Assembly: GCA_050247435.1 (NCBI GenBank)
Contig: JBFWUF010000015.1
Coordinates: 29-64,028, forward strand
Reading direction: 5' to 3'
Length of the DNA stretch: 64,000 nucleotides
Origin: Blastocatellales bacterium
GTDB lineage: Bacteria; Acidobacteriota; Blastocatellia; RBC074
The translations under genes were made by a program, and so were the position numbers. Shown one piece after another: positions 10 through 54,534 of the stretch. The first letter of the stretch is position 1, and each line of letters opens with the position of its first letter. The notes beneath the pieces are model-generated. The model made no database searches, was not told the DNA's origin, and worked only from the letters and a program-made list of their open reading frames with translations.

Positions 10-481
10 GCTTCAATGGAGCCACGCACAGCCGAACGTGGAAACTTATTTACCTCGGCAGTTAGGCTCCGATTGCCGCGAGGCTTCAATGGAGCCACGC
101 TCAGCCGAACGTGGAAACAAGGTAGCGCGCTGCGATCCCTGATACGGGAAGTCGCTTCAATGGAGCCACGCTCAGCCGAACGTGGAAACGTGTCGGAATA
201 CTCCCAGGCCTGGTCAGACGCAGACGGGCTTCAATGGAGCCACGCTCAGCCGAACGTGGAAACGCATTTTCGATTTGGAAGTCACGCTGAAAGGCGAGAC
301 TCGCTTCAATGGAGCCACGCTCAGCCGAACGTGGAAACTCGTGCGTCAACTCCCAGGCGGCGCGCAGATCGCCGCTTCAATGGAGCCACGCTCAGCCGAA
401 CGTGGAAACGGGCCTCTTGCGGTTCGCGTGCCGCGGCAAAAAGCAGCTTCAATGGAGCCACGCTCAGCCGAACGTGGAAAC
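10..481 (-). CRISPR. CRISPR array: 7 x 36-bp direct repeats and 6 unique spacers of 35-39 bp. The + strand repeat is GCTTCAATGGAGCCACGCTCAGCCGAACGTGGAAAC; the inferred transcribed (-) strand repeat is GTTTCCACGTTCGGCTGAGCGTGGCTCCATTGAAGC. The array is probably truncated by the window start.
   Basis: Repeats at 10-45, 83-118, 154-189, 228-263, 303-338, 374-409 and 446-481. Repeat 1 (far from cas2) has one substitution (CGCACAGCC vs CGCTCAGCC), which fits a degenerate leader-distal repeat. The minus-strand 3' end ATTGAAGC resembles the canonical ATTGAAAC 8-nt crRNA handle. Confidence 0.95.
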
Positions 482-610
482 AGTACGCAAACTAAGCTCA
501 ATGAACATTCGCATTTAGCGCACAAGATGCGAGAGGTGGTTTGCGCTGGCGCGGATATTATTTGTTTTCTCCTTGATCTCCAAGTCATTTCTTACAACCA
601 AATGATTTAA
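482..610 (-). promoter_or_regulatory. CRISPR leader: an AT-rich region with a putative sigma70-like promoter on the minus strand. The -35 TTGGAG is the reverse complement of 577-582, and the -10 TAATAT (reverse complement of 555-560) follows a 17-nt spacer; it would read into the array.
   Basis: Local AT richness in a GC-rich genome. It sits between cas2 and the perfect repeat 7. The hexamers were read directly from the sequence. Confidence 0.55.
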
Positions 611-660
611 TCGCTGCGAGCGGGCGCCGGAGGTAAGCTCACCGGCGCCGCGCTCGCAAG
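611..660 (-). terminator. GC-rich hairpin (GCGAGCGGGCGCCGG...CCGGCGCCGCGCTCGC) immediately downstream of the cas2 stop; putative terminator of the cas operon.
   Basis: Near-perfect 15-bp inverted repeat between the cas2 stop (678) and the leader. Confidence 0.45.
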
Positions 661-677
661 CCTTCCAGCAGGTTTGT

Positions 678-974
678 TCAGACGATTACGGCGATTCGAT
701 CCGCGCGATCATTGTTCGGCCCGCGACCAAGCGTTTCGATGCTACATCGCCCGCTGCCGTCCGCTGGGCCGATGTCTATTAGCATCACCTGGTCGTCACG
801 ATGATTAATGATCTTGCTCAACGCCTCGATCATCAACACACGCTCCGACGCCGAAAGGTCGCAGCGAAAGACCGAGTATTGCAACGGATCGCCGTAACCT
901 TTCATTGTGCGATGAACTCGGCGCAATCGTTTATCGTCCGAGATGTCATAACTGACAATGTAGCGTATTCGCAT
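678..974 (-). CDS. cas2: Cas2 (CRISPR adaptation endoribonuclease)
   Basis: 98-aa protein MRIRYIVSYDISDDKRLRRV...LQYSVFRC with the typical Cas2 N-terminal beta-strand/Asp motif. It lies adjacent to cas1 and the array. Confidence 0.9.
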   Translation of the reverse strand: MRIRYIVSYDISDDKRLRRVHRTMKGYGDPLQYSVFRCDLSASERVLMIEALSKIINHRDDQVMLIDIGPADGSGRCSIETLGRGPNNDRADRIAVIV

Positions 975-1013: not shown

Positions 1014-2726
1014 TCAACGGGTGCAGAACGGCGGATAGCTTTCGATCTCCCCTGTCAGAAAACGCCCCAGCAATCGCGCCTGCACTTCAAACACCCGGCG
1101 GTAACTGATCGCGTAACCGAATTTCGGATGCGTCACTATCGTGTCCATCCGCCGTTCATAAGCTTCGATCACCCGCCGGCGTCCGCTGTCGGTCAACGCC
1201 ACCGCTCCGGCGCGCTCTACGAAATCCGACTTTCGCAATTCGCCGTTGTTGATCATTCCGACCGCCGCCGAATCGGCCACCAGCGGGCGGAACTCCTCCA
1301 TCAAGTCCAATGCCAGCGCCGGACGTCCGTATTTCGGCTGATGATAAAAACCCAGGTAAGGATCGAAGCCCACGCTGACCAATGTCACCAGCATGTCCTT
1401 AGCCAGCATCGAGTAAAGGAACGACAGCAACGCGTTGACCGGATCGCGCGGCGGACGGCGATTGCGCTCGGTGAATTCAAAGACCGGCGCCACACCGTCC
1501 TCCGACGTTTTGAACATCCGCGCCAGATTGCCGAAGTATTCGCGCGCCGCCGTGCCTTCAATTCCCAGCAGTTGTTCGATCATCCTCGCCCGCTCCGCCC
1601 GCCGCCGCGATTCGGCCAGCCTGTGCAACACGCCTTCGGGCAATTCGCGCGCGTTGCGCCTGAGCAGCGTCCGGCAATTGCGAATCTTGCCCGCCGTGAA
1701 AGCCCGCGCCAGCCGCAGACACGACGCCGGATCGTCAGCCGTCTGAAACTGCCGCCGTCGCAATTCGATGTTCTTGTGCGGCGGCGGCGTAGTCACTGCC
1801 GCCAGCCATCCGCCGTAAGACAGATGCGTCACAATGATGTCGCGCGCCGCCAGTTCGCGCAGCGCCTGTGCCGAAACCTGCACATTGCCGAACAGGCTCA
1901 ACTGCGCCGTGTCCAGCAGCCGCGCCTCGTCAACCACCTTGCCCTTGTCGCGTATCTCCAGCGTCTCGCCTTTCAGCCCCACGCTCATTCCCTGCCCCTG
2001 CACGTAAACCGCCAACCGGTCGTCGCGCGCCGCCACCAACCGGCGAGGCTCGCTCGTAGCGCGCGGCGAAATCTGCGTGAGATGTCCCCTGCCCGAAGTC
2101 GCGCGCAACAGGTTGACCTCATCCGGCAAGCAGATGCCCACGAGCGAACATCGCGGGCATTTCGGCGAATCAACCAACGGCGCAGGAATCACTCCGCCTT
2201 CAGCCACTCGCCGCGCCTCGTCCAACAATTCCAAAGTGCGCGCGATCAGTTCATCCGTGAACTCAACCGTCACGCGCGTCTGCGAAGCGGCGAAATAGAG
2301 CGCGCCGTAATCGCACTCATACCCGTTTTCGCGCAACAACAAACCCTGCAAACAGACCTGCACACGCTCCGGTTCCCACGCGCCTTCGGGCAGATCGGGC
2401 GCCTCGCCGCGCTTGTAATCAACCGGAACCACCTTGCCGTCGTCCGCCTCGATCAAATCAATTCGCGCCACCGCGCCCAATCGGTCAGAGCCGATCAAGA
2501 CCGAACGCGAATGCAGCCTGACCTGATCGTTCAAATTTTCAGCGGCAGGCACGCCGCCTTCCTCGCGGTCTACGCGACGATGCACGAACCGCCCACCCAG
2601 CGTGTCGGCTGAGTGCGCCCACTCCTTCTGAACGTGTTCGAGGTAAAAGAGACGCGGGCAGTAAGCGTATTCATTGACCATCCGCGCGGGGATTTGTTCC
2701 AGCGCATCTGTTTGGCTGAGTGACAT
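1014..2726 (-). CDS. cas4-cas1: Cas4-Cas1 fusion protein (RecB-like Fe-S nuclease domain N-terminal, Cas1 integrase C-terminal)
   Basis: 570 aa. The N-terminus has YAYCPRLFYLE, a DYK (ExK-like) motif, QGLLLRENGY (QxxxY) and CPRCSLVGIC (three Cys), matching the Cas4 4-Cys/RecB motifs. The C-terminal ~330 aa is Cas1-like. AGGAGG RBS upstream. Such a fusion is the hallmark of type I-G/I-U. Confidence 0.9.
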   Translation of the reverse strand: MSLSQTDALEQIPARMVNEYAYCPRLFYLEHVQKEWAHSADTLGGRFVHRRVDREEGGVPAAENLNDQVRLHSRSVLIGSDRLGAVARIDLIEADDGKVVPVDYKRGEAPDLPEGAWEPERVQVCLQGLLLRENGYECDYGALYFAASQTRVTVEFTDELIARTLELLDEARRVAEGGVIPAPLVDSPKCPRCSLVGICLPDEVNLLRATSGRGHLTQISPRATSEPRRLVAARDDRLAVYVQGQGMSVGLKGETLEIRDKGKVVDEARLLDTAQLSLFGNVQVSAQALRELAARDIIVTHLSYGGWLAAVTTPPPHKNIELRRRQFQTADDPASCLRLARAFTAGKIRNCRTLLRRNARELPEGVLHRLAESRRRAERARMIEQLLGIEGTAAREYFGNLARMFKTSEDGVAPVFEFTERNRRPPRDPVNALLSFLYSMLAKDMLVTLVSVGFDPYLGFYHQPKYGRPALALDLMEEFRPLVADSAAVGMINNGELRKSDFVERAGAVALTDSGRRRVIEAYERRMDTIVTHPKFGYAISYRRVFEVQARLLGRFLTGEIESYPPFCTR

Positions 2727-2745
2727 AACAACCTCCTGAGAAAAT

Positions 2746-2849
2746 CCTGGGAGCGCATCGCTTCCAGCGTGCTCTTGGCAAGATATTCATTGAAAGGAAA
2801 TAAGCCTCTCGCCAAGAGCACGCTGGAAGCGATGCGATGCGCTCCCAGG
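2746..2849. repeat. Palindromic MITE/REP-like element, copy A (CCTGGGAGCGCATCGCTTCCAGCGTGCTCTTGGCAAG ... CGCCAAGAGCACGCTGGAAGCGATGCGATGCGCTCCCAGG)
   Basis: ~37-bp near-perfect inverted arms with CCTGGG/CCCAGG termini. It shares 27 identical nt with copy C at 44199-44297. It sits between the stop of the 272-aa RAMP ORF and the cas4-cas1 RBS. Confidence 0.8.
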
Positions 2850-2854
2850 AATGT

Positions 2855-3673
2855 TTACACTGGCAAAAACAACCCAAGCCCGAAATGACAACCAAAGCCC
2901 AGAGCGAGCGGCCCGGCTATCGGCTCCGCAAACTCAAGCTCGAACCCGGCCAGCCCGAATCCTTCAGTTCCATTGAACCGCCGCGTGTGAAATTCGAGCC
3001 AGCGAACCAAAGGCCGCCCTCCCGCCGCATAACCTTCAACGCGTTTGATCGAAACCGGCTCCGGCAATCCGCGCACGAGCAATTCACGAACGAGCTGCGC
3101 TTCAGGCAGATCGCGCGGACGCGGCGGCTTGCCCCCGCCACGATTGGCAAAACGCGGCAGCGAGAACGGAGTCACCGACCGCCACCTCCGCGACCGCGCA
3201 AAGATCGGCGCATCGCCGAACTGCCCCGCCTCGCCAAGCCCGGTCAAAACTAGCCGGACATCAGGCCGATTGCCCTGCCTGAAGATCGTCCGCAAAGCGC
3301 CGATGGCCTCAAGGTCGTGACGATCAAACCCGCACGGCGCATAAAGCGTAACGTGATCCAACCGCCCATCGCCGTCTTCATCCACCGCCAGATAATGCGC
3401 GTGCAGATGCCCTTCGAGCGGCGCGCCGTCAACCGTCTTGCCGACGATGGCTTCGGAATGCGAAGTGTCCACCCGATTGCGAATCAACGCGCGCCGCACC
3501 TGCTCAGCGAACGGCATCGCGTCCTGCGCGAGCGGCAGCAGTGAGGAGTTCAGGACATAGCGCGCCGCAGCAATCGTTAATGAGGAACTCAGATGATGGG
3601 GAGGTGAACTACAACGCACATCAACACATCGAGAAATAACGTCAGCGGGTGAATCAAGAACTGTAATCGGCAT
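2855..3673 (-). CDS. RAMP-superfamily Cas protein (Cas6- or Cas5-like), an extra gene not expected in canonical type I-G. The likely true start is the ATG at 3517 (MPFAEQ...).
   Basis: The C-terminal glycine-rich loop GFGCHFGLGLF fits the GhGxxxxGhG RAMP signature, and an RWRSVTPFSL segment is present. The first ~50 codons are low-complexity and probably not translated. Confidence 0.45.
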   Translation of the reverse strand: MPITVLDSPADVISRCVDVRCSSPPHHLSSSLTIAAARYVLNSSLLPLAQDAMPFAEQVRRALIRNRVDTSHSEAIVGKTVDGAPLEGHLHAHYLAVDEDGDGRLDHVTLYAPCGFDRHDLEAIGALRTIFRQGNRPDVRLVLTGLGEAGQFGDAPIFARSRRWRSVTPFSLPRFANRGGGKPPRPRDLPEAQLVRELLVRGLPEPVSIKRVEGYAAGGRPLVRWLEFHTRRFNGTEGFGLAGFELEFAEPIAGPLALGFGCHFGLGLFLPV

Positions 3674-3700
3674 AGTCGAGTCCTTTATGTTGCGGCAACT

Positions 3701-5155
3701 TCAAATGAAGCTGGCAGGCACGTCTTCAAGGCAAGGGATCATCAAGCCAAAGCCGGAATGCCTGCCGCGTCCAATGACCAACACGCCTTCAACTGGCCGT
3801 TTGAAAATTACTTCGGCGTGATAACGTGGCGTCTGCGCGAGGTAGCTGTTCTTTTCGATTTGATAGTCCAACGGATGAATGGTCTTTTGCACAATCGGGC
3901 CAGTAAAAGCGGCGACAGATTCGATCTCGCCCTCAGGCACACCTGCTTGCATCAATGCGCGCGCAATCAACGCTTCAGCGCCGCGTCCACGCCGCATCAA
4001 GCCGGTCAGGATAATCGGCGTCACCGTCCGCCAGACGCGCTGCCCTCTGCCGATGAATAAGCGCAGAACCGAATCATTCGGCGCAGCCCGTTTCAGATAC
4101 CCGGCGAACTCCCCCTGATCTTGCAACTCGGCGCCGTTGATGCCGTCCGCCAAGCTTTCAAACAAACCCTGTGAAGCCGCGTCCTCGCAGCCGTAGCCAA
4201 TTAGCAGCACGCGGCGAATCCATCCATCAGCCTTGCCATCCTCTTTCAAGCTCGGAATGGGCACGCATGCAATGTGTGCCCCGTTGTGCTGCCTGTCAGC
4301 CTCGTGCCCGGCAATCAGACGCGACGCCAACTCCTCGCCGTAATGCTGAATGAATTTAGGATTCGCCCTCATCCATTCAATCATCGCGTGCCTGACCATT
4401 GCCGCCGGTTGACGCAATTCGCGCGGATCAAAGCGCTTCCGTTCATCCTCATCACGCCACAATTCAAATAACGCCATCGGCGCGTCAAAGCCGATCGCAC
4501 CTGACGGGCGGTAATGGGTGCGCCTCACAGGGATTGTCACGTTATCTTTGCTCTCACCCCTCAACCACGCTTGGTAGCGTTCCTGATAAGATGCCAGCGA
4601 ACCTTTTGTAGGTGAAACCCAATCGCCGTCTGATTGTTCCACCGGCAACATCGCGCCATTTGGCAAAATATCGTCACCCGACACCTCTCCGCTGGCGTAA
4701 ACCACGTCCTGATGCTGGCCGAGATGCGTGATGAGTTTAGCCATCGCGCAGATGACGGCGGCGTTTGCTTCGGCTTCCGGCGTGGCTTGGAAGTTCCAGC
4801 GGTAAGTCAGCGAATCGCCTTGTGGAAAAACTTTTGCCAGAAAAGATTTGGCCGTCCTGACGTGTTCCAGCCGATTCTCTTTCCGCCCGTCATCATTGTT
4901 CGGCACGTAGTTGGTGACGCCAGCGCCCGCTGTTCGTTCGGAGGGCGCTTCAATCACAGGCGGCTCCAGAGTTTCCAGCCATCGCAAGGCGCGGTCACGC
5001 TCGGCGGTATGCACCTTGTCGTAGACGCCGCAATGGCTGCCCGCGATCAATGCCTGGAACAGACGCGCGGGCGATGGCGGAAATTCCAATTCGTCCTCGC
5101 CCCTGCGCCCGTGATAGCGACGCGTGGCGAATGTCAGTTTGATTTGTAGCTGCAT
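3701..5155 (-). CDS. csb2: Csb2-like Cas5-Cas6 fusion (GSU0054 family), type I-G effector subunit / pre-crRNA endonuclease
   Basis: 484 aa. The N-terminus has LTFATRRYHG...EFPPSPARLFQAL, which resembles the Csb2 signature (GRYHA...EWPPSPWRLLRAL). The C-terminus has the G-rich loop GRGRHSGFGLMIP. Confidence 0.7.
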   Translation of the reverse strand: MQLQIKLTFATRRYHGRRGEDELEFPPSPARLFQALIAGSHCGVYDKVHTAERDRALRWLETLEPPVIEAPSERTAGAGVTNYVPNNDDGRKENRLEHVRTAKSFLAKVFPQGDSLTYRWNFQATPEAEANAAVICAMAKLITHLGQHQDVVYASGEVSGDDILPNGAMLPVEQSDGDWVSPTKGSLASYQERYQAWLRGESKDNVTIPVRRTHYRPSGAIGFDAPMALFELWRDEDERKRFDPRELRQPAAMVRHAMIEWMRANPKFIQHYGEELASRLIAGHEADRQHNGAHIACVPIPSLKEDGKADGWIRRVLLIGYGCEDAASQGLFESLADGINGAELQDQGEFAGYLKRAAPNDSVLRLFIGRGQRVWRTVTPIILTGLMRRGRGAEALIARALMQAGVPEGEIESVAAFTGPIVQKTIHPLDYQIEKNSYLAQTPRYHAEVIFKRPVEGVLVIGRGRHSGFGLMIPCLEDVPASFI

Positions 5156-5167
5156 AAGATCACCTCG

Positions 5168-6331
5168 CTATTTCTTCTTGGTTTTCTTCGCCTCTTCCAC
5201 GCCTTGTTTGGCCGCCTTAGCGTCAAACCCGACTTCCTGCGAATCGCCGACGCCAAAAGTCTCGGCAGCTTTTTTCGCGTAGCCAAACGCGGCTCTCACG
5301 TCGAATGCAAAAGGCTGGCTGGCGCGGTTGGTGTATACCAGTTGAGCCTGTTCGCTCTGACAACGCAGCAGACAGCCTTCGCGCAAGTCGTAGCTCGTTT
5401 GCGCGCGCGCCGCGACCAGCGCCAATCCCAGCAGGTAGCGCCTGAGCTTCAGCGTCTCGTCTTCGTCAATCTTGCCGTCTTTGATCACACCCAGCGCGCG
5501 CAACCGCACCAGGTTGATTTGCGTGCGCCTCACAATCTGACCGTAAACACGCACGCCGCCGTGTGTGTTGACTGCCGGCGCCGCGCGCAAGCCCAATTTG
5601 GACAAAGGGTCTTTGCCGTCGGCAGCTTTGCCGGAAGTTTCTTGAACCTCAGTCTCGCCATCAGGAAGTTCCTCCGCCAACCCCAAGGCGGTTGGGTCAA
5701 AGGTGGGGTTGTATTGGGACGAGCGTTTGACGATTTCGATGTTGGTGGCGCGGATGGTTGATGAGAGCATGCGCCCGAATTTGTACATCGTGGTATCTGG
5801 CCGCGAGTCCCAGAAACCGAGCAGCAAGGAAGTCGGCGCGAGTTTGGCAAGCGGCGCGGCGTTGGCTTGATCGCGCATGGCCTTGATCGCGGCAGTGACT
5901 GTTTCTCGCAGGGCGGAAAAACGTACCGCCCCGTCCGCAATGCGGTGCCCGATGTCCAACAGGTTCGCCTTCACTTCGTCATTGAGTCTCACTCTGATTT
6001 GCGGAACCAACGCCGCCAGCGGCTCTTCTTTGAACCTTGCTTCCATCCGGTTCGCTTGCGAACCAACGCTGTCAATAAGGCAATTGTTGGCTTCAAGTCT
6101 GGCCTGGGCGGCGGCCTGTGCTGAGAAGTTTTTATCCAGCACATCAATTTGATAGGGATGGGTGGCTCCCCTGCCTACCGCGAAGGTCGGCGGAAAGATC
6201 ACGGCATCACGTCCTTCCGACGGCTCAAGCACTTCTTCCAGCGTGATCGCGACCGGCAAGTCGGGTTCCGCAAGCCAGTCCACAGATTCGATAAAGGCGT
6301 CATACTGCTCAATGTTGATTTCCTGGGTCAT
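5168..6331 (-). CDS. cas7: Putative Cas7 backbone subunit (Csb1/GSU0053-like)
   Basis: 387-aa protein located between the Cas8u-like ORF and csb2, as in type I-G. Its size and position fit Cas7, but no diagnostic motif could be verified by eye. Confidence 0.55.
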   Translation of the reverse strand: MTQEINIEQYDAFIESVDWLAEPDLPVAITLEEVLEPSEGRDAVIFPPTFAVGRGATHPYQIDVLDKNFSAQAAAQARLEANNCLIDSVGSQANRMEARFKEEPLAALVPQIRVRLNDEVKANLLDIGHRIADGAVRFSALRETVTAAIKAMRDQANAAPLAKLAPTSLLLGFWDSRPDTTMYKFGRMLSSTIRATNIEIVKRSSQYNPTFDPTALGLAEELPDGETEVQETSGKAADGKDPLSKLGLRAAPAVNTHGGVRVYGQIVRRTQINLVRLRALGVIKDGKIDEDETLKLRRYLLGLALVAARAQTSYDLREGCLLRCQSEQAQLVYTNRASQPFAFDVRAAFGYAKKAAETFGVGDSQEVGFDAKAAKQGVEEAKKTKKK

Positions 6332-6545
6332 TGCTATCTCCTTCTTTGCCGCCGTAGCGGCGGTTGAATTTAGCCGTGGTTTTCAAACCACGGCGCCGAT
6401 GAGAAAGTTTGCCGTGTCGCGTCAGCGACACCTGAACTCAAGCGTCACTACGCGACGCCGCGGTTACGCGGCTGAATCCCAGGCGTTGAAACGCCTGGCT
6501 AAAGTCAGGTCGCCGCTACGCGGCTGCAACAAGCCGCGTTGATAC
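6332..6545 (-). other. Highly structured 214-nt intergenic region inside the cas operon with at least 6 stem-loops: CCGTGGTTT-GA-AAACCACGG, GTGTCGC-TGAC-GCGACAC, CCAGGCGTT-TC-AACGCCTGG, GCCGC-GTA-GCGGC, CCGCG-TAAC-CGCGG and GCCGC-TACG-GCGGC.
   Basis: The inverted repeats were read directly from the sequence. It lies between the stop of the 316-aa ORF and the cas7 start codon. Confidence 0.6.
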
Positions 6546-7496
6546 TTATTGCCGGCGGCCTTTGCCAGATTTAGGCTTCGGCCAAACAGCCGCCAGCGCC
6601 ATTTTGAAGTTGGAATACTTGTCTCGCTTGGCTCGGCCTGCGCGCAGCGGGACTAGCGTGTCTTGCCGAATGGCTGCGCCAGTTGCGGCCAATCGCGCCA
6701 GTCTGATGGGAAGCGGCATTTGCCAAAGCCCGTACAGAAAAGCGTCATCCTCAACCCAGCCACGAGCGGATGTGATGCCGCCGCCCTGCCGGGTGCGTTG
6801 CGGGAAAAAATACTGCGCGGCGATGCCCGCCAGCATTTCCGCGAACGGATAAGTCGCAATCGGCAGGTTCAAGTCGTTCGCCGAAAATCCAGTGTCCAAT
6901 GCGTTGCGTGAGGAGCGCGGATCAAACCCGAAGCGCCCCGTCATCCCAGCGGACAGCTTGAGCAGCGCCGAGATGCTCTCGACTCGATGCTGCTGTAACA
7001 GCCTCGCCGCTTCTCCGGTCATATCGCGGGTGATCTTTTCGGCGGTCTGCTGCCCGGCGTACATCTTCCAGGCGCTCTTCTCTTTGATCTTGCGCTGCGG
7101 CGTCAGCGTTTCATACCACCAATCCAGCCGCAGGGTGGCCGACTGGTCGTTGAGATAAAACGACGGACTGAGCAAAATGCCTTCGTTGCCTTCCTCAGCA
7201 GCGTTTGCATCGTCCGTTTCGCTAGGTGGTTCCTCCTCAGCCTCGCCATTCTGCTCTTCCGCCTCCTGCGTCTGATTGGTTGATGTCTGCCAGGCATTCC
7301 AATCCGTCAAGGTCTGCGTCAGGCAGCGCAACAGGGATGTCTCGTCAATTTGGCTTTCCAGCCAACAACGCGGTTGCACATCGAGTTCCCACCAACTGAC
7401 GGCATTCGGATCAAAGCGCGCGATGATTTCCAGCACGCCGCAACAGGCTAGGTATTCGACCGGGTTATGCGGGTTCACTTGAATGTCATATTTCAT
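6546..7496 (-). CDS. Short Cas8u2/Csx17-like (large-subunit-like) protein with an internal acidic low-complexity insert (EAEEQNGEAEEEPPSETDDANAAEEGNEG). It is only 316 aa, versus ~700 aa for canonical Cas8u2.
   Basis: It overlaps the cas3 stop by 4 bp (ATGA). The N-terminal VNPHNPVEYLACCGVLEIIARFDPNAVSWWE resembles the remembered Csx17 N-terminal motif (L.GC.P.P...YLKALGVLRL...DP.A..WW). The position is that of the large subunit. Confidence 0.4.
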   Translation of the reverse strand: MKYDIQVNPHNPVEYLACCGVLEIIARFDPNAVSWWELDVQPRCWLESQIDETSLLRCLTQTLTDWNAWQTSTNQTQEAEEQNGEAEEEPPSETDDANAAEEGNEGILLSPSFYLNDQSATLRLDWWYETLTPQRKIKEKSAWKMYAGQQTAEKITRDMTGEAARLLQQHRVESISALLKLSAGMTGRFGFDPRSSRNALDTGFSANDLNLPIATYPFAEMLAGIAAQYFFPQRTRQGGGITSARGWVEDDAFLYGLWQMPLPIRLARLAATGAAIRQDTLVPLRAGRAKRDKYSNFKMALAAVWPKPKSGKGRRQ

Positions 7497-10400
7497 TGTT
7501 CACCTCCGAATTCGCCTCGGCTGAAAGCGCGTGAGGCCAGGGCGTCAGCGGCTTTGAGCACCGCTTCCAGGTAAGCCAGTTGCCACCATCCGTACTGCCG
7601 TTGCAGCCGGTCGAAGCGCAACAGCGCCTCGTGCGCGATTTGCTGATTCAGCGGCTTGGGTTGTTTGCGATCAAACGCGCGTTCGGGGAAGTGCGGGCGC
7701 GCGTAGCCGTGGTGCGACGCAATAAGATGAAGAATCAAATCACGGTGCGGATGGCCTTCGAGCGAATCGTCTTCGAGCGATTCAACCAGGGAGCCGAATT
7801 CGTGGCGGTAGCCTTGATTGAAATTGTGATCGAACGAGTTGTTGTTCGATTTGGCGTAGAACTCGCCTGTGAAATTGCCGATAGCCTTTTGCCACCAGTC
7901 GCGCGCCTTGCCGAGATCGTGGCGCACGCCAGCGGCAGCCAACGCTTCAATCAAGTCATCTGGCAAACCGATCCGCCGCCCCAGGTCGCGGGCGAAAAGC
8001 TCGACATCTTCGTCGTGTTGTTTGACGGTACGAGGCGCCAGGTCGAGCGAGGCTTGATCGTCGGCCTCTTCGCTGAAAAATGCGTCGGGCGTGATGCGCT
8101 GGCGGAAGCAGGCGATGTAAGCACGTGGTTCCTCATCGGTGGTGAAGGCATTTTGCAAGTCAGAACGATTGACCAGCACGCCTTTGCCCTTCACGCTTTT
8201 CAACGCTTCTTGCCAAGTCGAAAAGATTGCCTCTGTCCCATCCGCCAGGTTGAGTTGCTTGATTGAGTAATCCGTCTCGGCGCGGCGAGTGATGAGATAG
8301 CGCGCCCATTCAGCGCTATTGACGACATCGAACGACCGCGTCCCTTTGGCGTCAGGATTCCCATCGTCATCCAGACCGCCGATGCCGGCGGGCAAGATCA
8401 CCGCCGCGAACGCAATCTGGGCAAACAGCCCCTTCCTGGTTTTGTCATCCGCGAAGGAAGCCAGCCTGAACGCCTCTGCTTCACCGCCAGCGTCAATCAG
8501 AACGCACAGCTTTTGCGGATGCTTTTTGGCAAGCTCGGTCAGCAACTTCTCGGCGCGGAAGGTCGCTACGGCGGCGCGTTCCTGCGGCTGCACGGGGATT
8601 GCCGTCACCAACTCGGCCAGTTCTTCCGGCTGATTCGTCACATCAAAGCAGTCCAGTTCAGCCCGCCAGACGAACGTCGTTTGCGCCTGCTCGTCGTCAA
8701 TCACACCGCGCAGCCAGTACTGCGCCAGCGGGCGCGCGAATTCTTTCTGCTTCAGTGAAGTCATTGCCCAATCGTCAAGCCGCGCCTGATCCAGCGGCGG
8801 GCGAACCGGTTCATCTGGTAATGCTCGCTGGTTGGCCGCCAGCAGACCGCGCAGAGCCAGCGGCGATGCTTTCACTTTTCCGTTTTCCTCTCTGGATTTC
8901 AGCGCCAGCCAGGTGAAATAAACCTTCGGGCGCTCTCGCTCAATTTCTTTTTGGCCGCGCTCTGCACCATTCTTTGCCAGCTTTTTGTGTTGATCGGATT
9001 TTGCCCTGATCTGCTTCTGCAAGGATTGTTTAGCTTCCCTATCAGACTTCAAGATTTCAGTCTGAGCTTGCAACTCGGCAATTTCCGCCGCGAAGTTGGC
9101 CAAGTGTTGTTTGTGCTCTTCGTCTTTTTGAAAATCGGAGGCGGCAGCCTGCAAACCCAATTCATCAATCACCACAGTAATCGTGGAATCGGTCAAGCCG
9201 AAGCGATTGATGCGCCCGATACGCTGGATCATGCTGTCCAGCGTGGACAGGTCGCAGAGACCGTGATCAGCATCCAGATTGACGCCGACCTCCGCACATG
9301 AAGTTGCAATCATGTAATGAGTCGGGCGGGGGGTAGCACGATCCCGTTGATTAGGTGAAAAACGCATGAACTTGAGAACTTTGATTAGTTCATCACGTTC
9401 AGCGCCGCTGGCAGAAGCCAGCATTTGCATGATTTCCAACTCAGTTTTCTGAAGATCCGAGGTCAATTTATCGCGCTCCCATCCACGCATCTCGCCGGTC
9501 ATTTTGAGGATGCGATTGTTTATCTCCGCTTGCGCCGCTGCCTTTGCTTTTTTGTCAGTGGCCTCCCTGCCAGCAAGGCTTTTCTCTTCCAGCGCGGCTT
9601 TCAATTTGTCGAAGATGAGGTTCACCAACTCGACCGTTTGCGCAAAGATGATGACGGATTTCGGCGGGGTATTCTCATCGCCGACTTCGTGCTGAATCGC
9701 GCGATTCACCAAACGTTCCGCTAATGCCTCTCTGATTTCGGGTGGTGTGGCTTTCTTTCCTGCTTTCGCTTTAGCCCGCTGGTCAAAAGGCAGCCATTCG
9801 ATGTACTTGCGCGCGTTGAGGCGGCGTTCGGCAGTTTCGTTTCGGAGTTCTTGCTCTTCGTTCAGCGCCAGCGTGTTGCTCGCTCCGCTGAGCGTGGCCG
9901 ATAACGACATCACATGGAATGGCCGCAACGATTGTCCCTGTTGAACAAAGTTTCGGATGTCAAGTTGAGTAGCGACAAAGCAGGGGGACAGGTGCGCCTC
10001 ATCAATCACGATCAGGCTGTCTTGCCCCAACAAGCCGGCTTGCAGGCTGCGATGGTTGATGCCGACTTTCCCATAGCCGGTGAACAACATTCGGCTGCCG
10101 ATCATATCTACCGTGCCGATGATGATGGCCGGACGCGATGGGTCAAGACACCATTCCCGATTGTCAGCTTTTTGCCCGCGCAAAGTCGAAAGCGCAATCA
10201 GAGACTCCTGCCCTTTCATTGATGCTGCGCGAAAGGTTTGCGCCAGTAGATGAAGCGGATTCGATTCATCTGAAAGAGCGACAGTAAGTTTCTTCAGCAG
10301 GCTTTCAGCTTCCGCCGTCGCCTGATCAACAATGACGCGACGGTCTACGACATACACCAGACGCAATGGAATCTTGCGCGTGCGCTCTTTGAGCATGTGC

Positions 10401-10567
10401 GCCAGCGCAATCAACCAAATCGCCATCACTGAAGTCTTGCCCAGTCCGGTTGGAATGTCGCAGGCTTCGGGAAAATCTGCGCTCATGAAACGGTCAAATA
10501 GCCTTTCTTGCCAGTCAAAGGGTTGCTTTTCTGTTAGCTTGCCGAAACACTCTCTGAAATTAATCAT
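7493..10567 (-). CDS. cas3: Cas3 helicase-nuclease with an N-terminal SF2 helicase (GLGKTS Walker A, VIDEAH box) and a C-terminal HD nuclease (RHDLGK, SHHGYARPH). It contains a long Lys/Glu/Gln-rich coiled-coil-like insertion.
   Basis: 1024 aa with motifs read directly. A C-terminal HD domain is characteristic of type I-G Cas3. Confidence 0.9.
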   Translation of the reverse strand: MINFRECFGKLTEKQPFDWQERLFDRFMSADFPEACDIPTGLGKTSVMAIWLIALAHMLKERTRKIPLRLVYVVDRRVIVDQATAEAESLLKKLTVALSDESNPLHLLAQTFRAASMKGQESLIALSTLRGQKADNREWCLDPSRPAIIIGTVDMIGSRMLFTGYGKVGINHRSLQAGLLGQDSLIVIDEAHLSPCFVATQLDIRNFVQQGQSLRPFHVMSLSATLSGASNTLALNEEQELRNETAERRLNARKYIEWLPFDQRAKAKAGKKATPPEIREALAERLVNRAIQHEVGDENTPPKSVIIFAQTVELVNLIFDKLKAALEEKSLAGREATDKKAKAAAQAEINNRILKMTGEMRGWERDKLTSDLQKTELEIMQMLASASGAERDELIKVLKFMRFSPNQRDRATPRPTHYMIATSCAEVGVNLDADHGLCDLSTLDSMIQRIGRINRFGLTDSTITVVIDELGLQAAASDFQKDEEHKQHLANFAAEIAELQAQTEILKSDREAKQSLQKQIRAKSDQHKKLAKNGAERGQKEIERERPKVYFTWLALKSREENGKVKASPLALRGLLAANQRALPDEPVRPPLDQARLDDWAMTSLKQKEFARPLAQYWLRGVIDDEQAQTTFVWRAELDCFDVTNQPEELAELVTAIPVQPQERAAVATFRAEKLLTELAKKHPQKLCVLIDAGGEAEAFRLASFADDKTRKGLFAQIAFAAVILPAGIGGLDDDGNPDAKGTRSFDVVNSAEWARYLITRRAETDYSIKQLNLADGTEAIFSTWQEALKSVKGKGVLVNRSDLQNAFTTDEEPRAYIACFRQRITPDAFFSEEADDQASLDLAPRTVKQHDEDVELFARDLGRRIGLPDDLIEALAAAGVRHDLGKARDWWQKAIGNFTGEFYAKSNNNSFDHNFNQGYRHEFGSLVESLEDDSLEGHPHRDLILHLIASHHGYARPHFPERAFDRKQPKPLNQQIAHEALLRFDRLQRQYGWWQLAYLEAVLKAADALASRAFSRGEFGGEQ

Positions 10568-10663
10568 AGCTATCCTCTTCTAATCCGTTAATGGGTAGGT
10601 AATTTATGCTACTAAAGCTACTTGCGTATTTTGGATAATTGCTGTACTACGTTGATCGTGGCT

Positions 10664-10679
10664 GTGGCTCCATTGAAGC
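10664..10679 (+). repeat. Solitary CRISPR-repeat fragment (GTGGCTCCATTGAAGC, the 3' 16 nt of the minus-strand repeat, preceded by a duplicated CGTGGCT) in the cas3 promoter region. It is inverted relative to the array.
   Basis: Exact 16-nt match to the repeat, ~100 bp upstream of the cas3 start codon. No adjacent full repeat. Confidence 0.7.
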
Positions 10680-10742
10680 TGAGACTTACAGGTCTAGTCT
10701 CTTGCGGTTTTCAAACTTTCCCAGCCACATTAAATAACTGAC

Positions 10743-11006
10743 TTAATTAGGGCTTATGTCGTCCAACCATATGTACATTTCGTTGTTTGGTCCTGGACGA
10801 ATTGGCACATTCAACGCAATCGCATCTGTTTCGGAAACGTCGTTCCCAATGATTAAAAATTCTGGCTGCATCTCGTCTTCGGTTTCACCGTCTCCACCTT
10901 TTTGCCTAGACTTGTAATTCTCATAAGTTTCCATTGCGGAGGGGAAGATAATCACCGTTGCCCAGCCTGTCAAGCTGGAAAATGCGTGACTTGCACCATT
11001 TGGCAT
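10743..11006 (-). CDS. Hypothetical small protein (87 aa) in a low-GC island between the WYL regulator and cas3; possibly a gene fragment
   Basis: ORF only. The surrounding ~680 bp is markedly AT-richer than the rest of the window. No recognisable motif. Confidence 0.3.
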   Translation of the reverse strand: MPNGASHAFSSLTGWATVIIFPSAMETYENYKSRQKGGDGETEDEMQPEFLIIGNDVSETDAIALNVPIRPGPNNEMYIWLDDISPN

Positions 11007-11243
11007 CCAAATATGTGCGAAATCTGTACTTAACTTCTCTCAAATTTTCCCCTCCCGTTAGAGGCTTTAGATAACTTGGTCACCTTCTGTAACTCCGGCT
11101 CATAAGAGACATCCTACATGCGACACCGGGCGACTAATCCCGCTATCGCCTCCCTCCAAAATTTTTTTTTCGCCCTACACTCTTACCTCGCCTGATATAC
11201 CGCTCGACGGCGGCGAAGTTCGACAACTCGCCCGTAATTTTTT

Positions 11244-12254
11244 TCATTCCCCGCCTCCGCATCGAGCCAGAGCCTTTCGGTGCGCCTCGGCGACTTCGCG
11301 GCGCATTTCCGGTGGCGAGATGACTTCGACCTCCGGCGCCCAGCTCAAGATGAAGCGCACGAGGCCGCGTCCTCTGGCCACTTCCATTTCGATGGTGATT
11401 GATTCGGGTCTTTCGGCGCCCTTCGGGTAACGTTCGATCTCGCGCTGGGAGCGATGAAAAGTGCGTTCGGCGAAGACTGAGGCCGTCACGCCGTGAGCGC
11501 GCAGTCGCACGCGGATCGGTTCGTCGTGGATGCCGTTGAAGCAGTATCGGGCCAGGTAATCGCGCAGGTTCCAATCGGGCGGACGGCGGAATCGTTCGCC
11601 CGTTTCGCGGATGCGGCGGATGTGATCTACCGAGAAGGTGCTGATCCTCTCGTGGTCGTGGTCGTAGCCGATGACTTTGATCGTCGCGCCATCGGGGTCG
11701 AAGTAGACGGCGTAGGGGTCGAGCTTGCGTTCTTTGGTTTCGCCGCTGTTGAGCGAGTGGTAGCGCATGACGATGCGGCGGCGCGCGACAGCGGCGTTGG
11801 TCAACCGGTCAATCGTCGCGGCATAGGGCGCGAAATCTTTGGCGGGCGCGGTGGCCGAACCGTAAACGGCGGACATCGCTTCCAGTCTCTCGCTCAGCGA
11901 CGGCGGCAACGCGTCTCGCACTTTTTGCAGCAGCGACTCGGCGTGGCGGGCGAAAGGCGAGCTGATCGCGGTCAGGCCGGTTGAACCTATGGCTTCCTGC
12001 GCCAGCAACAGCGTCGCCAACTCCACGGCGGTGAAGTCGGGGCGCTTGCGTCCGGCGATGCTGTAGTAATAGACGTGACGGCCCTCCCGCCTTTCCGTGA
12101 TCCCGTAGCGTTTGGTCAGTGCGTCAATACTGCTTTTGATGGTTTTCCGATCAACGCCGAAGTATTCCATCAACTCCTTTTGGGTGTACCAACGTTCGGC
12201 GAGCAGGCATGGCAATTCGGCGAAACGCGTCGCCATTTTGTCACTGTGCGACAT
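11244..12254 (-). CDS. WYL-domain transcriptional regulator (HTH - WYL - WCX-like C-terminal), a likely regulator of the adjacent cas operon
   Basis: 336 aa. It has an N-terminal HTH (YTQKELMEYFGVDRKTIKSSIDAL) and a central WYL-type segment (RRRIVMRYHSLNSGETKERKLDPYAVYFDPDGATIKVIGYDHDHERISTFSVDHI). Confidence 0.75.
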   Translation of the reverse strand: MSHSDKMATRFAELPCLLAERWYTQKELMEYFGVDRKTIKSSIDALTKRYGITERREGRHVYYYSIAGRKRPDFTAVELATLLLAQEAIGSTGLTAISSPFARHAESLLQKVRDALPPSLSERLEAMSAVYGSATAPAKDFAPYAATIDRLTNAAVARRRIVMRYHSLNSGETKERKLDPYAVYFDPDGATIKVIGYDHDHERISTFSVDHIRRIRETGERFRRPPDWNLRDYLARYCFNGIHDEPIRVRLRAHGVTASVFAERTFHRSQREIERYPKGAERPESITIEMEVARGRGLVRFILSWAPEVEVISPPEMRREVAEAHRKALARCGGGE

Positions 12255-42550: not shown

Positions 42551-42651
42551 CCTGGGGGCGCACGCGGCCCGCGTGCGGGCTTGTTGAAAGATACCGCACG
42601 ATAAAAATAGCGACTGAGTAAGCCCGCACGCGGGCCGCGTGCGCCCCCAGG
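42551..42651. repeat. Palindromic element, copy E: perfect 32-bp inverted repeat CCTGGGGGCGCACGCGGCCCGCGTGCGGGCTT ... AAGCCCGCACGCGGGCCGCGTGCGCCCCCAGG around a 37-bp loop. Each arm is itself palindromic.
   Basis: Read directly. It starts 4 nt after the stop of the PAP2-like gene and ends 21 nt before the DsrE-like start. Confidence 0.85.
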
Positions 42652-54184: not shown

Positions 54185-54275
54185 AATCTCCTTCAAACAT
54201 GGGAAATACGGATTTGTTGTGATGCGCGAAGAAGAGCGCAACTTTACCCTTTGGCGTTAAAACTTGAAAGCCGCG

Positions 54276-54350
54276 CCTGGGAGCGCACGCATCCTTGCGT
54301 GCTGGTTTTCTGCCGTAAGCCCAGCACGCAAGGATGCGTGCGCTCCCAGG
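54276..54350. repeat. Palindromic element, copy D: perfect 30-bp inverted repeat CCTGGGAGCGCACGCATCCTTGCGTGCTGG around a 15-bp loop, followed by a partial direct duplicate of the terminus (CGCTTGCTCCCAGG, to 54364)
   Basis: Read directly. It lies upstream of purD, between purD and rpsU. Confidence 0.85.
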
Positions 54351-54534
54351 CGCTTGCTCCCAGGCGCTTGACAGTTTGCAGGGCCGAAAGCTAAGGTTGC
54401 GGTTCGCTTCACCAGCGCCGTCGCCCGCATGGCGTCCCAACAATCTCGAATGGCTAATTCGGTCAACGAGAATGCCCGGCGAACGCGCGGTGAAACTTCC
54501 AATCGCAGACATTTGAAAGGCAGGTGAGAAGTAA

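Follow-up and report, generated by a model that had tools for sequence, protein, structure and literature searches.

A type I-G CRISPR-Cas locus combining a Csb3-type effector cassette with a predicted free-standing Cas6 of the Csx17-type lineage

Two described variants of type I-G CRISPR-Cas are the closest known relatives of the locus analysed here, which is found in a 64,000-nucleotide stretch of DNA from a Blastocatellales bacterium (contig JBFWUF010000015.1; hereafter the window, to the whole 64 kb of which coordinates refer unless another locus is named). One is the Csb3 variant ('Dpsyc' subtype, Csb1-Csb2-Csb3), on which experimental work has been done in Bifidobacterium animalis (bioRxiv 10.1101/2022.08.19.504415). 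The window shares with it the gene order cas3g-csb3-csb1-csb2-cas4/cas1-cas2 and all of the protein families, but differs from it in three respects: a predicted free-standing Cas6, encoded by open reading frame (ORF) 272, is added between csb2 and cas4-cas1; the adaptation module, the repeats and the flank that carries a WYL-domain regulator gene are those of the Csx17-type lineage; and Csb3 (ORF316) has a disordered acidic insert of ~30 aa that distant Csb3 proteins are without. GSU0051-0054 of Geobacter sulfurreducens is an example of the same variant. The other relative is the Csx17 variant of Thioalkalivibrio sulfidiphilus (PMC9638904, PDB 8b2x), to whose lineage the ORF272, Cas4-Cas1 fusion, Cas2 and repeat architecture of the window belong; unlike that system, however, the window has no Csx17, ORF272 is without the N-terminal Cas5-like half of Csb2, and the effector proteins are those of the other variant.

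ORF272 can also be compared with stand-alone Cas6 proteins (Cas6b, I-B Cas6, Csf5 and type III-associated Cas6). Like them it is a separate gene for a protein with a two-RNA recognition motif (RRM) fold, a C-terminal glycine-rich loop and a conserved histidine, and homologs of it fill the Cas6 role for I-B and III-B effectors at two other loci (L021 and L038) and head a Cmr module at a third (L025). Unlike them, it coexists in the window with a second Cas6 domain, inside Csb2.

We conclude that the locus is a recombinant of two known I-G variants, in which the Cas6 domain of the displaced Csb2 has been kept as a gene of its own. The reading that we favour, with a probability of about 0.7, is that of a chimeric I-G system that has a Csb3-type cassette in place of a Csx17-type one, and in which the retained ORF272 most likely processes the repeats of the array, possibly redundantly with Csb2. 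A literature search of incomplete coverage found no description of a stand-alone Csb2-type Cas6 or of this arrangement.

The free-standing Cas6 encoded by ORF272

The ORFs of the window were searched against the profiles of Pfam, NCBIfam/TIGRFAM and PADLOC, and all ORFs of the locus were found where the first-pass annotation, which was made from the letters alone, had placed them, on the minus strand and in one operon (Table 1). The locus is of type I-G: it encodes Cas3g with a C-terminal HD domain, a Cas4-Cas1 fusion, Csb1, a full-length Csb2 (containing EFPPSPARLFQAL) and Cas2, and has an array of 36-nt repeats. The I-G hallmarks read in that annotation from Cas3g, Cas4-Cas1 and Csb2 were thus all confirmed by profile matches. 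There is no separate cas11 in the operon and, according to the ORF list of the window, no further operon ORF besides ORF272; the 214-nt gap between csb3 and csb1 was scanned for a small Cas11-like ORF and none was found. The array totals 104 repeats on contig JBFXDP010000021.1 (GCA_050181015.1), where the locus is numbered L001 (a window coordinate is 13674 minus that in L001). Read in the transcribed (minus) direction, the repeat is GTTTCCACGTTCGGCTGAGCGTGGCTCCATTGAAGC (repeat RNA also written GUUUCCACGUUCGGCUGAGCGUGGCUCCAUUGAAGC), and it folds into an 8-bp stem with a 4-nt loop, preceded by a 4-nt flank and ending in a 12-nt tail, so that the stem is followed by 4 + 8 nt.

ORF272 matches solely the C-terminal half of the Csb2 profiles (TIGR02165 positions 236-492 of 492, 97 bits; PDLC01778 positions 221-447, 185 bits), and Csb2's N-terminal Cas5-like domain is missing. 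No sequence-level match was seen between ORF272 and the curated Cas6 families, its family matches being to Csb2 models only, and a search of the PDB by sequence with ORF272 and ORF316 gave chance matches only. With the C-terminal half of Csb2 proteins of 470 aa, ORF272 shares 70-86% identity (up to ~79% over the whole alignment, and 85-86% over the best local BLASTP segment). The best 120 homologs fall into two length classes, ~85 of 240-300 aa and ~29 of ~470 aa, the latter being full Csb2; in a library of clusters at 50% identity, ~33 of the best 150 relatives are of 330 aa or less and have a near-complete domain.

Residues 1-36 of ORF272 are a disordered extension derived from the junction described below, and residues ~37-272 make up the Cas6 domain. 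The AlphaFold2 (AF2) model (mean predicted local distance difference test score, pLDDT, 76.9) has the two-RRM Cas6 fold with its C-terminal glycine-rich loop, in which H263 is found (GFGCHFGLGLF). H263, H72, H89 and H91 are invariant in 80 sequences, stand-alone and fused, and ORF272 keeps every residue that is invariant in the fused Csb2 proteins. In T. sulfidiphilus Csb2 the catalytic His503 is near the C-terminus and the cut is made 4 nt 3′ of the stem, and the C-terminal domain, when isolated, folds on its own and cleaves the repeat, its binding to the hairpin being tighter than that of the full protein (PMC9638904); the catalytic residues of B. animalis Csb2, H520 and D530, are in its C-terminal domain (bioRxiv 10.1101/2022.08.19.504415). 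H263 resembles H503 and H520 of these proteins by its position near the C-terminus, and the geometry of the window's repeat fits the published cut. ORF272 therefore appears, from homology and the fold model, to be a free-standing Cas6, with homology to the Cas6 domain found at the C-terminus of Csb2 proteins of the Csx17-type lineage. The earlier annotation was right to see in it a repeat-associated mysterious protein (RAMP), but its suggestion of an extra subunit of this effector does not hold, as ORF272 derives from a second Csb2 lineage. The split of the Csb2 domains that was engineered in vitro is mirrored in nature by this locus.

The start of ORF272 is taken to be the ATG at 3673, which has a Shine-Dalgarno sequence (AAGGA) 7 nt upstream and lies 27 nt from the stop codon of csb2. 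A start at the methionine at 3517, which would give the ~220 aa first suggested, is unlikely and was rejected: the well-modelled conserved domain starts upstream at about residue 33-37, the same holds for the conserved strand of residues 35-42 and for the homology to fused Csb2, and the methionine at 3517 is inside the folded domain and is leucine in most homologs. Two further candidates were set aside. A recent duplication of the neighbouring csb2 was rejected on an identity of 30% over 115 aa between ORF272 and the C-terminus of that Csb2. Read-through of the csb2 stop codon was also considered; csb2 and ORF272 share a frame in the window but not in L002, L006 and other loci, and the shared frame is therefore a coincidence.

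Exchange of the effector cassette

Forty-four genome loci that encode relatives, mostly from Acidobacteriota (Blastocatellia, Pyrinomonadaceae), were annotated by tblastn and profile searches, and boundaries were determined by blastn. A fused 470-aa Csb2 follows Cas3g, Csx17 and Cas7g in 25 of them, which is the canonical Csx17-type I-G arrangement, and 13, including the near-identical L002, have the order cas3g-csb3-csb1-csb2 (full)-stand-alone Cas6-cas4/1-cas2. The I-G Csb3 layout without the extra gene is seen in L047-L051. One repeat family, GTTTCCACG..CGTGGCTCCATTGAAGC, is common to fused and stand-alone loci.

When the window locus was compared with its Csx17-type sister L003 by blastn, homology was found on the side of the WYL regulator gene, whose product is 78% identical to its L003 counterpart and which lies to the left of the exchanged cassette, on its conserved flank. 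Homology was then lost and came back exactly at codon 37 of ORF272, from where it continues through cas4-cas1, cas2 and the array. The swapped segment is ~7.5 kb long and its right breakpoint is the start of the Cas6 domain. A second pair of loci, L032 (stand-alone) and L026 (full Csb2), has flanks that are 90-91% identical and an unrelated internal 7 kb. The locus is thus a case of natural CRISPR module shuffling with a breakpoint at an intragenic domain linker.

Stand-alone and fused forms are interleaved in trees of the Cas6 domain and of Cas4-1, both of them neighbour-joining trees without bootstrap support. At least five different junction sequences precede the stand-alone Cas6 domain, and one junction sequence is common to loci with highly divergent Cas6 and Cas4-1. 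The interleaving and the junction types indicate either that the exchange has been repeated or that a csb3-type cassette spreads by recombination with one crossover where the Cas6 domain begins, its 5′ end being highly conserved; in both cases the adaptation genes and the array keep the Cas6 domain with them. The crRNA-processing domain (crRNA, CRISPR RNA) shares the inheritance of the array and the adaptation genes and not that of the effector, which bears on how effectors can be exchanged without loss of spacers. The demonstrated parts of the favoured reading are the homology, the fold, the boundaries of the cassette, its recurrence and purifying selection. The short large-subunit family was known already, and the interest of the locus, which we put as moderate, lies mainly in the module boundaries and the effector exchange.

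Role of the retained Cas6 domain

The events and the mechanism that we propose are as follows. A stable block is formed by the Cas6 domain, cas4-cas1, cas2 and the array, with the repeat family given above, plus the WYL regulator at the far side; in relatives this block belongs to Csx17-type loci, the Cas6 domain there being the C-terminal half of the 470-aa Csb2. In the window a complete cas3g-csb3-csb1-csb2 cassette has taken the place of the Csx17-type effector genes and of the Cas5-like half of the old Csb2, and the resident Cas6 domain has survived as the separate 272-aa gene. ORF272 would bind the 8-bp hairpin of the repeat and cut 4 nt 3′ of the stem via H263, and the resulting crRNAs, with an 8-nt handle AUUGAAGC, would be loaded on a Csb1/Csb2/Csb3 Cascade that recruits Cas3g. 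The cleavage activity of ORF272, its cleavage site and its division of labour with Csb2 are what we infer in this scheme.

A potential explanation that would not need to invoke any activity of ORF272 is that it is a non-functional scar of the exchange, the 3′ half of the displaced csb2, kept by its position between selected blocks or by expression signals of cas4-cas1. ORF272 does begin exactly at the recombination breakpoint, its disordered first ~36 codons are poorly conserved, with a ratio of non-synonymous to synonymous substitution (dN/dS) of about 0.5, and, as set out below, some related loci have no copy or a broken one. However, an unbroken ORF is seen in at least 12 loci, behind several different junctions; a Shine-Dalgarno sequence and an ATG of its own are present, and all residues invariant in fused Csb2, H263 included, are kept. 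Between sister loci that both carry the stand-alone Cas6, dN/dS is 0.15-0.28, like that of the neighbouring cas genes; it is 0.108 for the domain part alone, and 0.11-0.28 for the domain between pairs that are both stand-alone. A homolog of ORF272 is also the sole Cas6 among the ORFs scanned in the I-B and III-B loci L021 and L038. We regard a scar as improbable.

These other loci bear on a second explanation, in which ORF272 mainly serves another effector elsewhere in the genome (for example, a III-B or I-B system without a Cas6 of its own that shares the array) and is dispensable for its I-G neighbour. At L021, Cas8b-Cas7b-Cas5b-Cas3 are followed by the ORF272 homolog, which is just upstream of Cas4-1; at L038 a complete III-B module is on one side of the homolog and an I-B module, which it heads, on the other; and at neither locus did the ORFs scanned include another Cas6. 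At L025 the homolog heads a Cmr module, adjoining a Csx17-type I-G module whose Csb2 has its own Cas6 domain. Service to another effector would also account for purifying selection in spite of redundancy, as the Csb2 of the window already has an intact Cas6 domain. Set against this, genes of type III or I-B are absent from the 64-kb window and from the 10-kb flanks of every locus that has both the csb3 cassette and the stand-alone gene, and the genes adjoining the window locus are housekeeping genes, so that we consider this explanation, too, to be unlikely.

We conclude that ORF272-type proteins are a genuine stand-alone Cas6 class, on account of the purifying selection, the use made of them at L021, L038 and L025, and the short relatives in the cluster library. 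For annotation this means that 'Csb2' proteins of ~270 aa are a distinct class of stand-alone Cas6 and not fragments.

Several observations weigh against the processing role that we favour for ORF272. Csb2, of which the earlier annotation correctly said that ORF272 duplicates a function it already carries, is full-length, keeps a putative catalytic histidine in its own Cas6 domain (GRGRHSGFGL in the C-terminal alignment), and that domain is under purifying selection equally strong as for ORF272; ORF272 may therefore be redundant, and processing is probably redundant or shared. Locus L051 has cas3-csb3-csb1-csb2-cas4/1 and the same repeat family without the stand-alone gene, which a Csb3-type effector on such repeats thus does not strictly need. 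The stand-alone Cas6 is also absent from L046, a close relative decayed by insertion sequence (IS) elements, and the copies at L041, L044 and L045 are frameshifted. In vitro an isolated Cas6 domain could not take the place of Csb2 when Cascade was assembled (PMC9638904), and a free Cas6 that binds tightly might even be a competitor of Csb2 for the 3′ hairpin. Finally, the Cas6-domain and Cas4-1 trees are without bootstrap support. Relaxed selection on the Cas6 domain of Csb2 where the stand-alone Cas6 is present was looked for and not seen; nor was loss of the histidine of the Csb2 glycine-rich loop tied to the stand-alone gene, as His, Tyr and Asn vary at this position without that pattern. 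With two Cas6 domains present, the I-G locus raises the question of which of them produces and caps the crRNA.

The linkage of ORF272 to cas4-cas1, cas2 and the repeat family, with which it is co-inherited, and its usual place directly upstream of cas4-cas1 could also be read as a sign that it works with the Cas4-Cas1-Cas2 adaptation machinery, for example in leader or repeat recognition, and not in crRNA processing. The adjacency is not obligatory, however, as whole effector modules lie in between at L025 and L038; the fold and the conserved residues are those of a Cas6 endoribonuclease, and the linkage follows simply from the gene order in the fused ancestor. We give this explanation very little weight.

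A processing role for ORF272 can be extended, tentatively, to a wider idea that we hold to be possible rather than probable. The Cas6 domain, cas4-cas1, cas2 and the array might together be a portable 'memory and processing' unit that docks to Csx17-type I-G, Csb3-type I-G, I-B and III-B effectors, with the boundary between unit and effector at the Cas5/Cas6 linker of csb2. In chimeras the free Cas6 would then be the obligatory repeat-cognate processor and 3′-hairpin cap by which a foreign effector is made to fit the resident array.

A side observation concerns L046, a decaying locus of the Csb3 type on a 9.5-Mb contig (ERZ25039588 contig_2533): IS110, DDE and IS21 transposases are inserted in it, and cas3, csb1 and cas4-cas1 are fragmented.

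The Csb3 large subunit and other features of the locus

ORF316 had been described in the first-pass annotation as a minimised, split or novel large subunit, on the premise that canonical I-G has a single Csx17 of ~700 aa. The premise is mistaken, as a family of ~280 aa, TIGR04106, is already curated as 'type I-G CRISPR-associated protein Cas8g2' (Csb3, GSU0052 family). Residues 4-274 of ORF316 match positions 3-254 of the 282 of this profile, end to end (E 1.8e-21, 77.1 bits); the score is below the NCBI curated cut-off of 125, which points to a divergent subfamily of TIGR04106. Four PADLOC Cas8g models, 250-296 positions long, are also matched. Among 304 proteins returned by a search for homologs, nearly all of the best 120 are 280-325 aa long and many are named Csb3 by JGI, and all 82 homologs that were aligned match TIGR04106. 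ORF316 is located between cas3g and csb1, has a large-subunit (Cas8) fold, and its AF2 model (pLDDT 79.9; predicted template modelling score, pTM, 0.82) is confident except at residues 74-105. We conclude that ORF316 is an ordinary full-length Csb3, neither truncated nor novel. A division of the large-subunit functions between ORF316 and ORF272, as had been suggested, is likewise not supported, ORF272 having a Cas6 fold unrelated to Cas8. Short Cas8g proteins should accordingly be annotated as Csb3, not as truncations.

That ORF316 could be a truncated Csx17 was ruled out by the hundreds of homologs of 280-325 aa, the end-to-end profile match and the complete fold model. At 316 aa and not ~700, it has no NCBIfam match to Csx17 (TIGR04113) at E ≤ 0.1. 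When the Csb3 alignment was compared by hhalign with one Csx17, 31 N-terminal columns paired (E 0.25), which is not significant, and the relation of ORF316 to Csx17 therefore needed comparison of structures, in which the folds match over 224 of 649 Csx17 residues. The paired columns are those of the N-terminal motif that the first-pass annotation had likened to Csx17. From the sizes of the two proteins (316 versus 649 aa) and the C-terminal Cas11-like bundle described for Cas8g (PMC9638904), ORF316 would be expected to be without the Cas11-like bundle of Csx17.

The insert of Csb3 is disordered and acidic over residues 74-105, and between the conserved positions W69 and F113 (43 residues) there are 13 D/E and no K/R. 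It is 35-50 aa long in closer Csb3 homologs and 15-16 aa in distant ones, which marks it as a lineage-specific loop; that it is a DNA-mimicking or autoinhibitory loop is speculation on our part. We also noted that 53 of the 82 Csb3 homologs match NF049934 ('type I-G CRISPR-associated protein, Cas3-extension family'), to which the Csb3 of the window has no match at E ≤ 0.001. This suggests that NCBI curates two overlapping models (TIGR04106 and NF049934) for the short large subunit.

Table 1. Features at and around the I-G locus, in window coordinates
Feature	Position	Strand	Basis or remark
CRISPR array, 7 repeats in the window, extends past window start	10..481	-	Repeat detection
Putative leader, between cas2 and first repeat	482..677	-	Position alone
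cas2	678-974	-	PF09827, TIGR01573
cas4-cas1 fusion (Cas4g/Cas1g)	1014-2726	-	NF049935, 791 bits (cut-off 560)
Palindromic element, ~100 nt, between ORF272 stop and cas4-cas1 start	2745..2850		Small repeat family
ORF272, predicted free-standing Cas6	2855-3673	-	C-terminal half of Csb2 profiles, homologs, AF2 model, selection, Shine-Dalgarno sequence
csb2, 484 aa, full-length Cas5-Cas6 fusion, Csb3-type lineage	3701-5155	-	TIGR02165 positions 2-491 of 492, 210 bits; PDLC01410, 223 bits
csb1 (cas7g)	5168-6331	-	PF09617; TIGR02570, 98 bits
Second, inverted Acido-Lenti-1 copy, csb3-csb1 gap	6347-6393	-	31.8 bits, below threshold
Acido-Lenti-1 RNA motif (RF01687), csb3-csb1 gap	6479-6525	+	Rfam, 37.7 bits (gathering score 37); antisense to cas operon
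csb3 (Cas8g2, GSU0052 family; ORF316), short large subunit	6546-7496	-	TIGR04106 and four PADLOC Cas8g models; homologs; AF2 model
cas3g, helicase and C-terminal HD nuclease	7493-10567	-	TIGR02621, 573 bits (cut-off 400); HD at residues 851-983 of 1024
87-aa ORF, between WYL regulator gene and cas3, inside exchanged cassette	10743-11006	-	
WYL-WCX domain protein, putative transcriptional regulator of the locus	11244..12254	-	PF13280 and PF25583
Exchanged effector cassette (cas3 promoter region, 87-aa ORF, cas3g, csb3, csb1, csb2, first 36 codons of ORF272)	3566..11110		Lost nucleotide homology to L003; approximate

No family match is on record for the 87-aa ORF, which is weakly conserved in L002 (42% over 59 aa). 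The Acido-Lenti-1 motif is found at the matching place in the sister locus L002 (6092-6138 of that locus), where the gap has an additional hairpin-rich insertion of ~130 nt; rather than being a dedicated small RNA, the motif could here belong to a small repetitive element.

The intergenic site between the stand-alone Cas6 and cas4-cas1 is variable among loci. In L002 (9889-10865 of that locus) the gap is ~980 nt long, and a 33-nt direct repeat, CCTCCGGGACAAAAATTCATCGGCGTTTTTCCG, occurs three times in it. In the window it holds one of three near-perfect palindromes of ~100 nt (2745-2850, 42551-42651 and 54273-54353) with the common ends CCTGGGAGCGCA...TGCGCTCCCAGG, the latter two of which gave spurious Rfam matches to microRNA precursors. 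The three palindromes look like a family of intergenic repeats of the kind of repetitive extragenic palindromes (REP) or miniature inverted-repeat transposable elements (MITE).

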